Source: Octopus vulgaris
Taxonomy: Eukaryota
Direction: 5' to 3'
DNA: 64,000 nt
Assembly (NCBI GenBank): GCA_951406725.2
Contig: OX597835.1
Span: 37,820,001 to 37,884,000, forward strand
The position numbers were made by a program, and so were the translations under genes. This document shows positions 11,090 through 62,929 of this stretch, piece by piece; within the stretch, counting starts at the first letter, position 1, and every line of letters starts with the position of its first letter. A model generated the notes under the pieces. That model was not told the origin of the DNA. It did no database searches and saw only the letters and a list, made by a program, of their open reading frames with translations.

Positions 11090-12706
11090 CTAGCAGAATT
11101 GTCCGGCGTTGCTCGGGGCTGAATTGCTTGAAAGTACTGTTAATGATTGCACTGAATTATAATGATTATTCAGGCAAATATTGATATAAGTTTACGGTGG
11201 GAGATAAGGACTTAACGATCAAACGTGTGCCATTGCATTGTTTTGGGGGAACCAAATTTCTGATGAGCATTATAGGGGCACCAACTTTATGTTTGAGAAA
11301 GTGTGGTGGTAGTCCGGGGTGCTCAAAGGAATTGAGTACCTCTATTGGATAGTTGATGACGTCCTCTGGGTCAGGAGTTGTATCGATAGACTGATATACA
11401 TAGACTTCCCCAGGAATGAGTTTTAGCATTTCATCATTAATATGGTGAACAGTTTTATTCCTCGGGGCCAGTATAGCCTTTTTGCCAATCCAATCCATAT
11501 TCTGATAATTAGCTTGTAGATCTGGGAACACTGCATCTCTGAGATCAGAAGGCGTCTTAACAATGGTACAAATGGAATCGATGGCAATATTACCATTTTC
11601 ATCCCCTGTTATTTTGCCTTCGCCAAGTGCAAGGAGGGTGTGAGGAAATGCTGCTGATGTGATATTACGTCGCATATGAGCACGCATATTGGTGTGAAGT
11701 TTGAGAGTTACTTCCCTTTATTAAAAAAATATGCATTAAAATGGAAAAAAATGATGGTAAATTATTTGTAAAATCATAGACTCATCGTAGACGCGCGCTA
11801 ATACCCAGAAAGGCTCGATATGAATCACGACTATAACATACCCGGTTTTGGTTAAACTGCATCGCAAAATGTGGGAGTAGTTAGGAATCTAAATCGGAGT
11901 AGACAGACACACAACCTTTCTTTTATATATAAATATTTTTGTCCTAAAAAACTTTGTATGGATTGAATGGTTACCTCTATGGAAATATATACACACACGT
12001 TATACATACATGTGTGCATAGATGAATATATAAATACATTTATATATCTATATACACTTTTGGGCGATCTTTGTGCTACTTAGAGATAACTTTAGATCTT
12101 ATTTTCGTCCTAAAAAATTTTGTATGGAGTGAAAGGTTACCTCTATGGAAATATATACACACACATTATACATACATCTGTGTATAGATGAATATATAAA
12201 TACATTTAAATATCTATATACACTTTTGGGCGATCTTTCTGCTACTTGGATATAGGTCTTATATTCGTCCTAAAAAACTTTCCTGTCACACACTCACGCA
12301 CACGCACACACACACACGCACCCTCACACACACACACACGCTAGCTTACAATTTTATTTATATATTTGCGTGTTTATGTGTGTAAAGAGGAAGTGGGAAT
12401 GCAGAGTGAAAGAGTCACTCAGTACAAAAAGTGAATTACTTTCACTTTATTCGTTGCACACTCTGTGTGTGCGTTTGCGTGTGCTGTAGCCCACACTAAG
12501 AGGAGCATTTGACTTATACACCACAACGTGAGTTTTCTCTAAATTTTGCTTAATTGGGGTTGAAATTTTAAAAACTGTACCTGGCACAACCCGATGCATT
12601 CTACTCTTAAAAATGCTAGGTAAATTGTAATTGAAGAAATCCTATATTGTAGATTTCTATAAGATACAAAGGGAGGCAGATAAAATCTGCCTTTTATAAT
12701 AAGAGA
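11090..12706 (-). mobile_element. Composite Helitron with a helicase fragment
   Basis: 5' A|TCTCTTATTATAAAAG at 12706; 3' cccgagcaacgccgg hairpin and CTAG|T at 11090. Second 5'-like end near 11935; ~160-166-bp tandem repeat at 11941-12280. Confidence 0.85.
11166..11710 (-). pseudogene. Helitron Pif1-family helicase fragment
   Basis: LHTNMR...AILAPRN...INDEML...E.LNS...GLPPH.L..KVGAPIMLIRNL...CNGTRLIV motifs. Truncated at both ends. Confidence 0.9.
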
Positions 12707-14025: not shown

Positions 14026-14343
14026 ATCCTTGCATTTGCATTAATTAGCCTCTGAGAAATTCCTGCAGTTTTGTCTTCGATAAAATACATTGATTACCGT
14101 TACCTGGTATTGTTTTCTCTTGGAGTATTCTGTGCAATAATGCCTTTCATTCCAGGAACCAATTCCTTTGATACACATTAAAATTCTCAAAATACCACCT
14201 CCCCATCTCCTTCATGCTTATTTTTCTTTGCCATTCCAACTTGTTTTTCCTTTTTTTCCTTTTATTCATCTGTCCCTTCTTGGCTGTTTTAGTTATTTAT
14301 TTTCTAATAATCCATGTTTATCTCTAGTACCTATCTGTCTATC

Positions 14344-14378
<35 letters not shown>

Positions 14379-14382
<4 letters not shown>

Positions 14383-14859
14383 CCCTTTGCAGGTTAATAT
14401 ATATATCGAGCCTTTCTGGTGACGTCATAAATGCAACAGTAACACCCCCACCACCCTGCCCTGTCCCTAGCCATATTCAGATGGCTTTAGTCCCTTATGT
14501 TATCGAGCAGTTACTGTCTATATCCCTTTTAGAGAATTATTATTGCTTTCGAACAGATTTTCGAAATCAGCAAATGTATTTTGCTTGAAAATCTATATAA
14601 GAAAATCCTGCAGAGTGAGAATTCGTCGAGGAAGCGGAGGCCTACCACACGCCGATGATAGGCAATACACCTTGAAACCATGGTCCGTGTGTGGTTTCCG
14701 CTTCATCGGGGAATTACCTCCTTTGCAGGTTAAGGGCACCGTGACGGTGTCGAGCCTTTCTGGTGACGTCGATGTTCGCCTGGCGCTAAATGCAACAGTA
14801 ACACCCCCACCACCCTGCCCTGTCCCTAGCCATATTCAGATGGCTTTAGTCCCTTATGT

Positions 14860-14862
<3 letters not shown>
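14379..14862 (+). mobile_element. HHR-containing partial tandem repeat, 359-bp period (retrozyme or Penelope pLTR-like)
   Basis: 14428-14503 is identical to 14787-14862. (TA)n on both sides; HHR lies between the two copies. Confidence 0.75.
14645..14694 (+). ncRNA. Type I hammerhead ribozyme, near-canonical
   Basis: acacg-CCGATGA-taggcaatacacctt-GAAA-ccatgg-TC-cgtgt. Palindromic stem III accatggt and GUC cleavage site. Stem I extends by gaagcgga/tccgcttc. Has a U4-to-C change and a weak stem II closing pair. Confidence 0.75.
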
Positions 14863-14891
<29 letters not shown>

Positions 14892-14896
14892 TATAC

Positions 14897-14987
<91 letters not shown>

Positions 14988-14989
<2 letters not shown>

Positions 14990-15235
14990 GTGGAGGCACG
15001 TGGCTTCGTGGTTAGGGTATCAGCACAATGATTGTAAGATTGTGGTTTCGATTCCTGGACCGGGCGACGTGTTGTGTTCTTGAGAAAAACACTTCATATC
15101 ACGTTAGTTCAGTCCACTCAGCTGGCAAAAATTCGTAATGCTATGATGGACTGGCATCCCATCAAGCTGGGGAACACATACGCCATAGAAACTAGGAAAC
15201 CGGGCCCATGAGCCTGGCTAGGCTTTAAAAAAAGG
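14988..15235 (+). mobile_element. CORE-like tRNA SINE
   Basis: tRNA-like head (tggcttcgtggttaggg...gtttcgattcc) followed by ttgagaaaaacacttcat...cagtccactcagctgg. Confidence 0.75.
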
Positions 15236-16853: not shown

Positions 16854-18179
16854 CAGTCATTGGACAAAATAATGGAAACACCTAGCATCATAGCATCATA
16901 ATTTTGAAATATCTACAAAACTGTCAAAAGCTTGTTTATTTTTGCGTTTTTTTAAATTTATTATTACTGTTGCTTAATATGTTTTGCTAAAATTGTTGTT
17001 TCTTTTCAGATATCATCAGGAAAAGGTAATTAAAATTCATTAAAATGACAGATCTATCGGACTTTCAAAGAGGTCAAACTGTTGGTGCTTGTATGACAGA
17101 TGCTAGCATAACGAAAACAGCTGAAATGTTGCAGTGAAAGAGTACAGCAGGGTCTACCACCACCCACTGACGGAGTCTCGTGGAGCTGGTGTATCAAGAA
17201 TTACTGTCTCAAAAGTAATGACAGCCTTTGAGAAAGAGGGAAAAAGCTTGTCGACATAAAACTCCGGAAGAAAACCAAAACTTTGAGATAGGAATCGTTG
17301 GATTCTTACACGAATTGTTAGAAAGGATCACAAAAGTACAGTTCACAGAAGTACTGCAGAGTTTAATGGCTACCTTGAGAACCCAGTTTCCACAAAAACT
17401 GTTCACTGAGAGCTGCACAAAGCCGGATTTCACAGGAGGGCTACAATCAGAAAACCATTACTTTCAAAAACAAACATTGCCAAGCATTTAGAGTAGAGTA
17501 AAAACCTATAGAATTGGTCCCTAGAGCAGTGGAAGAATTTTATTTTCTTGGACGAGTCATCCTTTACCTTATTTTCGACCACCAGCTGAGTATACGTGTA
17601 GAGACAGCCAAAAGAAGCATTTGACTCAGACTGCCTTCTTCCAACTGTTAAACATGGAGGAAGATCTGAGATGATCTGGGTGGCTATATCTTGGAAATCT
17701 GCCGACCCAATGGTTTCTCTTCATGGCAGAATTAATAGTCAAGACTGTTTAAGCATTTTATCTGATCAAATTCACCCTACGGTTGAGGAACTGTTTCTGG
17801 GAGGAAACAATCTTTCAGGATGATAATGCACCAATTCACACAGGTAAAGTTGTTACTGAATGGCACAAGGAATATCCTAGTGAAGTTGAACATCGTATCT
17901 GGTCACCACAGTCCCCAGATCTCAATATTATTGAACATTTACGGTGCATTTTTGAAAATCAAGTAAGGAGTCGATATCCTCCACCATCATTACCACAAGA
18001 ACTGGAGACTGTTTTAGCTGAAGAATGCACAAAAATTCGTTTGGAAATAATTCAAGCTTTGTATGTGTCCATACCTCATAGAATTCAAGCTGTAATTACT
18101 GGCAAAGGCGGTCCTACCCCATATTAAAATAAATTTGTTTAAAATTTTAAGGTGCTTCCATTATTTTGTCCAGCCCCTG
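16854..18179 (+). mobile_element. Full-length Tc1-like DNA transposon (DD36E), ~1.3 kb
   Basis: ~30-bp TIRs cagtcattggacaaaataatggaaacacct / aggtgcttccattattttgtccagcccctg. TA on the left, TG (mutated) on the right. Confidence 0.9.
17045..18127 (+). pseudogene. Tc1 transposase, disrupted
   Basis: MTDLSDFQRGQ..., FIFLDESSF, FQDDNAPIH, SPDLNIIE, GKGGPTPY-stop. Contains frameshifts, stops and a 56-bp insertion. Confidence 0.9.
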
Positions 18180-18212: not shown

Positions 18213-18786
18213 TTATGTATCTATGTATATGTTTATGTGTAAGCATGTTTGTGTTTGCCTCCCCACCACTGTTTGACAACCGGTGTTGGTGTGGTTATGT
18301 TCCCATAACTTAGTAGTCCAGCAAAACAGACCAATAGAATAGGTACTAGGCTTAAACATATAAGACCAGGGATTTCTTCAACTAAAACCCTTCAAGGTGG
18401 TGCTCCAGCATGGCCGTAGTCACTTGACTGAAACAAGATAAAAGATACATACATGTGCACACACACACACACACACACACACCTGCACATGCATGCACAG
18501 ACACGTGCTTGGTTGCTTCTGAAGCACATGCTTTTGGGTTCAGTTCCAGGGCAATGAACTGTGATCAAGTGTCTTTAACTCTGGGAGTTGACCAGAGTCT
18601 GATGATTAGATGTGGCAAAGAGAATCTTGACTGGTTAACCAGGGCTGTCCTGGGGTTGAACAAGAACAGCAAAAACAATGATAAAAGTGGACACATAAGA
18701 GATCTTTAACAGCTGGACTGCTTGATCAGGATTGACCTGGGGTTAAAGAACAACAATAGAAACACCAACAACATATACGTAAAAGT

Positions 18787-19232
18787 GATCTTTAACCACT
18801 GGACTGCTTGACCAGGACTGAACTTGGGTTAAAAAAGATCAACAACAACAGACAGACACACAGACAAATGACATAAACTTTTGAGCATTAGACCTCTTGA
18901 CCAGAACTGACCGGGAGCTAAACAACAACATAAAAGAGATCTTTAACCACTGGACTGCTTGACCAGGACTGAACTTGGGTTAAAAAAGAGCAACAACAAC
19001 AGACAGACACACAGACAAATGACATAAACTTTTGAGCATTAGACCTCTTGACCAGAACTGACCGGGAGCTAAATAACAACATAAAAGAGATCTTTAACCA
19101 CTGGACTGCTTGACCAGGACTGAACTTCGGTTAAAAAAAGAGCAACAACAACAGACAGACACACAGACAAATGAAATAAACTTTTGAACATTAGACCTCT
19201 TGACCAGAACTGACCGGGAGCTAAAAAACAAC
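18787..19232. repeat. 151-bp tandem repeat, 3 copies
   Basis: Units start at 18787, 18938 and 19089 and are near-identical. Degenerate sub-units at 18625-18760. Confidence 0.9.
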
Positions 19233-19282
19233 AGCAATAACATACATAGGCAAAATAAATGTTTTTCTCTGCTATATTTTAG

Positions 19283-61545: not shown

Positions 61546-62929
61546 TATTTGCTGTATGTTAGCTCATTCCCTCCATCACCTGCCCAGGTTCATGAAGTGT
61601 CATGTGTCAGATGTCAAAATAATTGTCTAGCAATGTGAAATGAAGTATTTTGCTCAAGAAAGCGACACACTGCATGGGCTGGGAATTGGAAACACAATCG
61701 AGCAGTTGCGAGTTCAACATCTGAACCAGTAGGCCATGACTGGAGCCCCTCCATAGATGAAAACTAGCTCAGTCCTTGCTGCCTCAGTCAGGTGAAGCAT
61801 ATTCCAGTGAGGTGAAGTTACACCCTATTCTGTGAGTAACTTTGAAAAGGACCAGTTACTAGATGCTATGATTTGTCTTTAGCCCCTCCACCTAATTCCA
61901 GCAATTGATTTTGTGTGCCAGAGATGCTTTGGGCCTCCACGAGAGCTACCTCTGGTTTTGTCCCTACCAAGCCTAGATCACCATCTTTCGAAACTCTAGT
62001 TACCTGCAACACCTGAGTCAGAGTGGACACATCCAGCCAGAACTTTCAAGCCAGGCTCATGGACCCAACCTAGGAACGATGCTTTGAGGCATCACTCCAG
62101 AGCACCATAAGCATATCAGAGGCATAGCAACATGGCACATTCTCACTTTTGCTGTGCCTTTGGAGTTCATGAAGAATCCAATGACCTAGAATCAAGTGGA
62201 AGTTCTTTGTCCATGTCGACTAACTTTTCGGTAACTTTTTCCTTGTGCTTTTTATCTGCAGAGTAAACATTTAGTTTTGTTTCAATCTGTAGAAAATATA
62301 TCACTTAAAGTTTATGCTCACTTTCTAAATCCATCAAACGTCTTAAGCGAACAAAAAAATAAAACCAAAGACAAAATGCTATAATTATTAAATTTACTCA
62401 GCAAATAAATGAAAAAGAACAAAAAAAGCAAAAAAAAAAATAATAACTTTTAAATATGGAATCCACGAAAATGCAGTTAAAAGATAACAATAATTTAAAT
62501 TAGGAAAGAGAAAAATATAATAAAAAAAAGCAAATTATAAGCAATGCTTATTAAATAGTCTGCTAGTTTATGATTTTAATATTCAAAACAAAGTGTTAAA
62601 TTCTTGCTGCAATATCTTTAACTTTCTCTTCTGTGTTATGGAATTTCAGTGCCAATGAAAATGTTGGATGACTATTTCTTCATTTCTGTCATTGTTTCAC
62701 AGTTTTGTCTTTTGTTTCTTTTTCTTTTACTTTCCAGATTTCTAAAAGTTTTTAGGTTATAGAATGGAAATTTTCTGTCTTTGGAATTTTTTTTTTTTTC
62801 ATATTTTATGAAACATAATATATATCATCATAATCATCATCATCATCATTTTAATAATCATCATTATCATAATCATGATCGTCATCATCATCCTCATCTT
62901 TTTAATGTACACTTTTCCATGCATGCATA

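Follow-up and report, generated by a model that had tools for sequence, protein, structure and literature searches.

An Octopus vulgaris insertion read as a member of a young retrozyme family with a variant hammerhead core and a PLE-type footprint

Metazoan non-LTR retrozymes, as described by Cervera and de la Pena 2020 (PMC7229834) and by Li, Clavereau and Pollet 2026, consist of non-coding tandem units, 350-390 bp long in the mussel, with one type I hammerhead per unit, a weak palindromic helix III, a GC content below 50% and a highly self-paired sequence, and they coexist with Penelope-like elements (PLEs). The octopus family discussed here, called family A, has all of these traits in a unit of about 360 bp, and it shares a U-U mismatch at the base of helix II with the axolotl retrozyme Amex2. 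It differs from the retrozymes of these sources by the C that occupies core position 4 family-wide, by the lack of a homologous pLTR in the genome (its lineage, families A-E with identities of about 65-77%, is non-coding throughout in spite of deep divergence), and by a full PLE footprint of mirror arms, tail and (TA)n, which the descriptions in PMC7229834 and Li et al. do not mention as far as the comparison extends. Circular RNA is reported for metazoan retrozymes and is putative in family A.

Endonuclease-bearing PLEs of the Neptune type (PMC8557442; PMC4209133; PMC11167929) provide the other close comparison. Like family A, they show partial tandems, an inverted 5'-truncated arm, a tail at one end, a bias for (TA)n and a hammerhead with a palindromic helix III; the tandem, inverted and tailed layout with its (TA)n bias was described by Craig et al. 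2021 (PMC8557442). Frangieh et al. 2024 (PMC11167929) found that RT starts at two internal sites, that the sequence separating them makes up the tail, and that both target strands are cut and extended in vitro. Family A differs from these elements in having neither RT nor endonuclease, in a tail of 44 nt rather than 30-40, and in holding up to 23 full units per insertion. The Schistosoma PLE Cercyon has the same U3-A8 variant as the sister family B; Cervera and de la Pena 2014 (PMC4209133) is among the PLE sources compared. The core change of family A has itself a natural precedent in a viroid hammerhead with U4C (PMC3088659), but in family A it has become fixed across hundreds of genomic copies, is accompanied by U10.1-U11.1 and recurs in an autonomous element that is not related to the family.

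Retrozymes, and the connection between them and PLEs, already belong to the published record, and the texts of PMC7229834, PMC8557442 and PMC11167929 leave open both the role of the hammerhead in PLEs and retrozymes and the enzyme that moves animal retrozymes. New here are the variant core found throughout the family and the fact that the youngest autonomous element shows it in parallel. Lunse et al. 2017 reportedly treats PLE hammerhead variants. No report of family A, or of a fixed C4 plus U-U core in animal retroelements, was found in the literature searched, and that study or the supplements of the cited papers may already list C4 variants.

The window analysed is a stretch of 64,000 nucleotides, and the element lies at 14379-14862 within it. 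A repeat scan places one (TA)n tract on the left (14340-14379) and another on the right (14860-14985); neither has a strand, and both would be remnants of the target microsatellite, as ends of the family adjoin (TA)n. All other parts of the element lie on the plus strand. By unit comparison, 14380-14427 belongs to the unit before, truncated at its 5' end and patchy: 8 and 1 TA-type letters (TATATATA and A) stand in place of two 16-nt segments. Its sequence makes template switching at the 5' junction the likely cause, and similarly patchy junctions occur at loci L022, L028 and L199. The single full unit (14428-14786, 359 bp) has two private differences from a reference genomic monomer: one C is missing after 14719, and a G>C change stands at 14784. 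Monomers of family A are usually 360 bp long. The partial unit that follows (14787-14862, 76 bp) stops at the short fixed 3' end of the family, a likely start of reverse transcription.

Self-comparison of the window confirms the 76 identical base pairs at a period of 359 (14428-14503 and 14787-14862) that the initial annotation had described, and its other remarks on the unit hold as well: (TA)n flanks both sides, the GC content exceeds the background (0.39-0.54 against about 0.3 in adjoining bins), the sequence is rich in hairpins (the 359-nt unit folds at z = -5.8, with 0/100 shuffles equally stable), and there is no credible ORF, none of the ORFs within the unit having a Pfam match. In particular, a Pfam search of the frames of the 359-bp unit found no ORF with RT and GIY-YIG, such as an autonomous PLE would carry. 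A 44-nt stretch (14504-14547) that folds as a stem-loop corresponds to a PLE-type tail, and a TATA-like box upstream of the hammerhead (14594-14600), present also in family B, is from its sequence a candidate internal promoter. Families A and B also contain a pyrimidine tract plus CAG resembling a 3' splice site (14716-14733), about 40 nt past the predicted cut; no splice joint at this point occurs in the assembled run contigs that cover the unit.

The plus-strand hammerhead with a GUC site and a long extended stem I, noted earlier, proved to be a type I hammerhead (14646-14691) inside a long rod-like stem that prolongs its helix I (14620-14715; folding z = -5.1, with 0/200 shuffles as stable). 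This assignment comes from direct reading of the letters and from covariation, and the cut is predicted. Helix I pairs 14646-14651 with 14686-14691 and stem II pairs 14659-14662 with 14670-14673, followed by GAAA at 14674-14677. The core CCGAUGA (14652-14658; C3 C4 G5 A6 U7 G8 A9) has its C4 at 14653, and U10.1 (14659) lies opposite U11.1 (14673), a mismatch at the base of helix II. Helix III is the palindrome ACCAUGGU, for which the 8-bp duplex between two copies has a computed energy of -12.6 kcal/mol; GUC carries the predicted cut, 3' of C14685. An Rfam scan of the window at gathering and E-value thresholds gave no hammerhead family match. Stem II is predicted by folding to be 8% populated in family A and about 99% in families B and E, and for each of the three families folding also predicts that the 5' strand of the core pairs with the cleavage region GGUC, so that the monomer might adopt a self-blocking conformation. 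The window copy carries a single hammerhead, so no monomer could be released from it by double cleavage, and the copy itself is an ordinary dead-end insertion.

The surroundings of the element do not confirm the host gene that had been supposed to contain it: 0/195 stop-to-stop frames of at least 50 aa carry a convincing cellular domain, and a Pfam scan of these low-complexity-filtered frames gave just transposon-like or weak matches, a search that short exons would escape. The matches include a Pif1 2B-domain fragment (11169-11717, minus strand), which we take to be Helitron-like, and a DDE_3 transposase fragment (17753-18124, plus strand). Directly after the right (TA)n lies a presumably SINE-like repeat with a tRNA-like start (14988-15235, plus strand), and a similar sequence follows other microsatellites (L187). 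The window also holds a diverged 28S rRNA fragment (61854-61990, minus strand; Rfam RF02543, 68 bits) and two tandem repeats (18780-19233, 151 bp, 3 copies, 97%; 11934-12281, 166 bp, 2.1 copies).

In 8/8 sequencing runs, contigs spanning the unit are self-closing through a "goes back" joint of 359, a joint that tandem DNA gives equally, and none of the listed runs is recorded as RNA. A unit with 1-4 differences and the same core occurs in runs X8, X10, X16 and X20, labelled as four other organisms; in three of them it is a single low-depth contig, without the sister families. Such occurrences may reflect closely related species, relabelled runs, contamination or horizontal spread.

The genome searched comprises 2.8 Gb. 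BLAST with the unit returned at least 210 matches (40 scored of 769 candidates), the full-length ones 98-100% identical, and a core pattern in which position 4 could be either C or U had 882 genomic matches against 0 for the control. Among the core-pattern matches listed, 98/100 are identical to the window, and the genome may hold up to 866 copies of the family A hammerhead. The CUGAUGA (U4) version has only 16 matches, none of which (0/16) has the stem II of family A, and C4 was found in 71/71 cores read at loci L001-L030. C4 throughout the family means that it is not a private lesion of the window copy; the proposal that U4C inactivated this copy locally thus falls, C4 being the family-wide state and present also in a young intact PLE. 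The 12 core positions show zero variants in 166 full units, a result that is unusable as evidence of selection because the loci were partly chosen by the exact core pattern.

The initial annotation had counted a lack of other genomic copies against a retrozyme, and hundreds were found. It had also proposed reading the genomic consensus for CUGAUGA, and had counted a consensus without the hammerhead core against a retrozyme. The consensus indeed lacks CUGAUGA, which taken formally speaks against the retrozyme reading; this reading nevertheless survives, because relatives with canonical or compensated cores and the covarying stems mark a true hammerhead lineage. The element is retrozyme-like, as had been suggested, with tandem non-coding units, one type I hammerhead in each and hundreds of genomic copies. 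The copies are dispersed over many contigs, and their ends adjoin (TA)n directly, with no LTR/PBS/PPT layout. Li et al. (bioRxiv 10.64898/2026.07.22.740005) call a retrozyme "active" if it has at least two consecutive hammerhead-bearing units; the window copy, alone and with one hammerhead, lies outside this definition, and family A lies within it, with arrays of at least two consecutive hammerhead units at L191 and L194, for example. The unit length of 360 bp lies within the 150-450 bp expected of such elements. By comparison of its sequence, the element is thus read as belonging to a non-LTR retrozyme family that is very young, non-coding and characterised by a variant core.

Older related families align along the unit. 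Family B, with 225 matches of a 24-letter pattern, is about 77% identical to A and has the same ends; its core, UUGAYAA, shows the U3-A8 compensation together with G10.1-C11.1. Across 16 chosen representatives, both sides changed in 12/14 pairs and 95% of cells are paired, as against at most 44% in slid controls and 0/500 shuffles as high, the shuffle test being inflated by relatedness. This covariation argues that the motif belongs to a true hammerhead lineage. In 40 loci sampled from 827 related motifs without selection on positions 3-4, 39/45 cores had CU there, 3 had CC and 3 had other letters, so the older relatives mostly have canonical cores. Family E, the nearest relative of A that was found, has U4 with U-A or A-A at 10.1-11.1, and both C4 and U10.1-U11.1 would therefore be derived in family A. 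C4 may have a third occurrence in family D, where 5/8 copies not selected for T have C4 or its CpG-decay form, on an A-A base. At least 6 further related hammerhead families (827 matches; L211-L250) keep the canonical core and differ in the loops of their palindromic helix III.

The insertions were analysed in a sample of 43 (23 from BLAST or pattern loci and 20 hand-picked arrays), made up of top BLAST hits, first-listed pattern hits and picked arrays and therefore leaning to young, long copies. Two arms pointing outward were present in 35/43. Among the 33 two-armed insertions with both ends in view, 30 had one short (73-82) and one long (114-122) end, and the remaining three were one long-long, one short-short and one interrupted. 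The other 8/43, including the window copy, had one arm (7 with the short end, 1 with the long end). (TA)n adjoins 69/76 family A ends, the arms join at short microhomologies, and the fixed 3' ends lie near unit positions 76 and 120, giving a tail of 43-47 nt when TA microhomology is allowed for. The footprint of these insertions is of PLE type, with target sites in (TA)n, arms in mirror image and a pair of fixed 3' ends, and mobilisation by a PLE-type machinery is very likely.

Among 166 full units, those sharing an insertion differ at 1.07 positions on average (0.95 if they lie in different arms) and those of separate insertions at 4.08, and L191 holds 23 full units of one haplotype. The low divergence within insertions and the single-haplotype arrays agree with a single short template being copied many times over, something a circle would make possible. 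At L030, L193, L196 and L199, recurrent variants occur in only some units of the array, a pattern easier to reconcile with multimeric or mixed templates, or with gene conversion, than with a single monomeric circle. That one arm is copied from the other by fold-back is not supported as a rule: the variant order mirrors in L030 and not in L193 or L199.

A GIY-YIG search of the genome, with the best 150 of 6136 candidates scored, revealed two intact two-ORF families with RT and GIY-YIG and a Cx4CxxC linker, both stopping in (TA)n at two 3' positions; linker and target make them Neptune-type as this group is described in PMC8557442. PLE1 has ORFs of 479 and 781 aa and a U3-A8 hammerhead with G10.1-C11.1. 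PLE2 is a tandem unit of 4271 bp with ORFs of 454 and 775 aa, and its hammerhead reads CCGAAGA with U10.1-U11.1. In both, PLE2 (L183, C1:27840000-27849990) and PLE1 (L142), the upstream ORF overlaps the RT-endonuclease ORF by about 80-90 nt, and in PLE2 the overlap holds a U-rich, slippery-looking heptamer; the sequences suggest frameshifting.

A genome pattern count gave 1169 exact C4 and 351 U4 motifs of PLE2. The C4 copies with the newer loop letter have a median identity of 99.5% (23 copies, 246 pairs) and the U4 copies of 96.1% (18 copies, 126 pairs), pairs aligning over less than 150 nt having been dropped; three C4 copies with the older loop letter stand at 96.5%. The difference between C4 and U4 copies argues that C4 arose within PLE2 on the U-U base and marks its youngest burst. 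Two older C4 relatives of PLE2 (L187, L188) were chosen for C4 and have no bearing on age. By these sequences, C4 arose in parallel in family A and PLE2. Apart from the core letters, comparison of family A with PLE1 and PLE2 gave nothing significant (best E 0.12 and 2.9), and the family is therefore not classed as a deletion derivative of either. Family B likewise has no significant homology to PLE1 or PLE2, and no similarity to family A was found in 44 GIY-YIG loci of the 6136 candidates, where the matches were separate retrozyme fragments. Tails measure 26-52 nt in PLE2 and 31-42 nt in PLE1; the length in family A fits the former range and not the latter, which weakly favours PLE2. As the partner of family A, this C4 plus U-U element is a tentative choice, with the odds somewhat against it.

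Whether RNA with this core would still cut can be judged from related ribozymes. U4C lowers activity in vitro, yet the viroid that carries it is infectious (Ambros and Flores 1998 as cited in PMC3088659), and U10.1-U11.1 is the best tolerated mismatch at that pair (PMC3088659). Some hammerhead descriptors permit CYGANGA, and Amex2, with its U-U at the base of helix II, cleaves. Deep mutagenesis found low activity for changes in CUGA other than a C3-G8 swap (PMC9901934), and 8/9 Xenopus retrozymes showed no cleavage in vitro. In the anole PLE, as reported in PMC11167929, the hammerhead cut only with protein, uncleaved RNA was the dominant substrate of reverse transcription in vitro, and the full pLTR was dispensable for insertion. 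Given the weak predicted stem II and the CUGA mutagenesis, the ribozyme of family A may be nearly dead; the chances that it still cuts in vivo seem evenly balanced.

The best explanation, held with good though not full confidence, is that the window contains a one-armed, 5'-truncated insertion of a young retrozyme family with C4 and U-U, likely copied into (TA)n by the RT and GIY-YIG protein of an autonomous PLE. Multi-unit arrays would be transcribed, and their hammerheads would cut at a slow rate, probably after two copies pair through the 8-bp palindrome or when assisted by protein. The monomers would likely be ligated to circles, probably by a host ligase, as has been shown for other retrozymes. 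A resident PLE protein would then nick both strands of (TA)n, and reverse transcription would start on either side of the tail stem-loop, each strand using one of the two sites. Copying would run round the template and yield two tandem arms joined at microhomology; in the window copy, only the arm from the short end would have survived. That a circle served as template for at least part of the copies is slightly favoured.

If C4 and U-U abolish cleavage, family A would be a passenger of a PLE without any circle, spreading from linear multi-unit transcripts by internal initiation, with its length restored by template jumping or unequal exchange. Two weakening changes with a poorly populated predicted stem II, the mixed haplotypes of some arrays, the preference of the anole PLE for uncleaved RNA in vitro (PMC11167929) and the silent Xenopus retrozymes would all agree with this. 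However, both changes are reported as tolerated (PMC3088659), the remaining core letters are canonical in family A and PLE2, and family A, PLE2 and probably family D have all changed at the same position, where random hits would have been scattered over the core; long single-haplotype arrays in both arms also speak against it, and loss of the ribozyme is rated as rather unlikely. A spread by DNA-level recombination, as a satellite or minisatellite with a chance hammerhead-like motif, would explain the tandem organisation and the lack of an Rfam match, but hardly the dispersed arrays, the fixed 3' and variable 5' ends, the mirror arms, the (TA)n targets and a hammerhead that covaries; it is scarcely credible. 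Equally little credence is left for a canonical retrozyme whose local copy decayed by U4C inside an intron: the element is indeed retrozyme-like, but C4 is in all family copies examined and no host gene was found.

A further idea is that the retrozyme parasitises a PLE and has come, by convergence, to resemble its hammerhead, a motif that the PLE protein would bind or assist. The pairings hold in the cores seen, A and PLE2 both having C4 with U-U, and B and PLE1 both having U3-A8 with G10.1-C11.1; both changes of A are derived relative to family E, its tail length lies within the range of PLE2 and outside that of PLE1, and the anole hammerhead needed protein to cut (PMC11167929). Yet there are just two pairings, and coincidence is plausible as few variants are tolerated; in family D, C4 seems to be combined with an A-A base instead, no other sequence is common to A and either PLE, and anole PLE insertion did without the full pLTR (PMC11167929). 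Such mimicry is improbable. Copying of the partner's ribozyme for recognition is also one form of a broader conjecture, that selection rather than decay set U4C on U10.1-U11.1 in both the youngest retrozyme and the youngest PLE subfamily; the other form is that a throttled, protein- or dimer-dependent ribozyme spreads better. This conjecture is speculative and more doubtful than likely. If the throttled ribozyme were true, the gain would come through long-lived circles or long multimeric templates.

Family A is missed by Rfam and by any descriptor that demands CUGANGA or G10.1-C11.1, so surveys would undercount elements of this kind. The octopus genome is a ready test set: it combines a very young variant-core retrozyme, whose start sites are mapped exactly, with sister families that have either a canonical or a U3-A8 core, and it holds two candidate enzymes that are intact, one of them having changed to the same variant in its youngest subfamily. 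Family A would be a natural test of whether such RNAs need self-cutting to spread.
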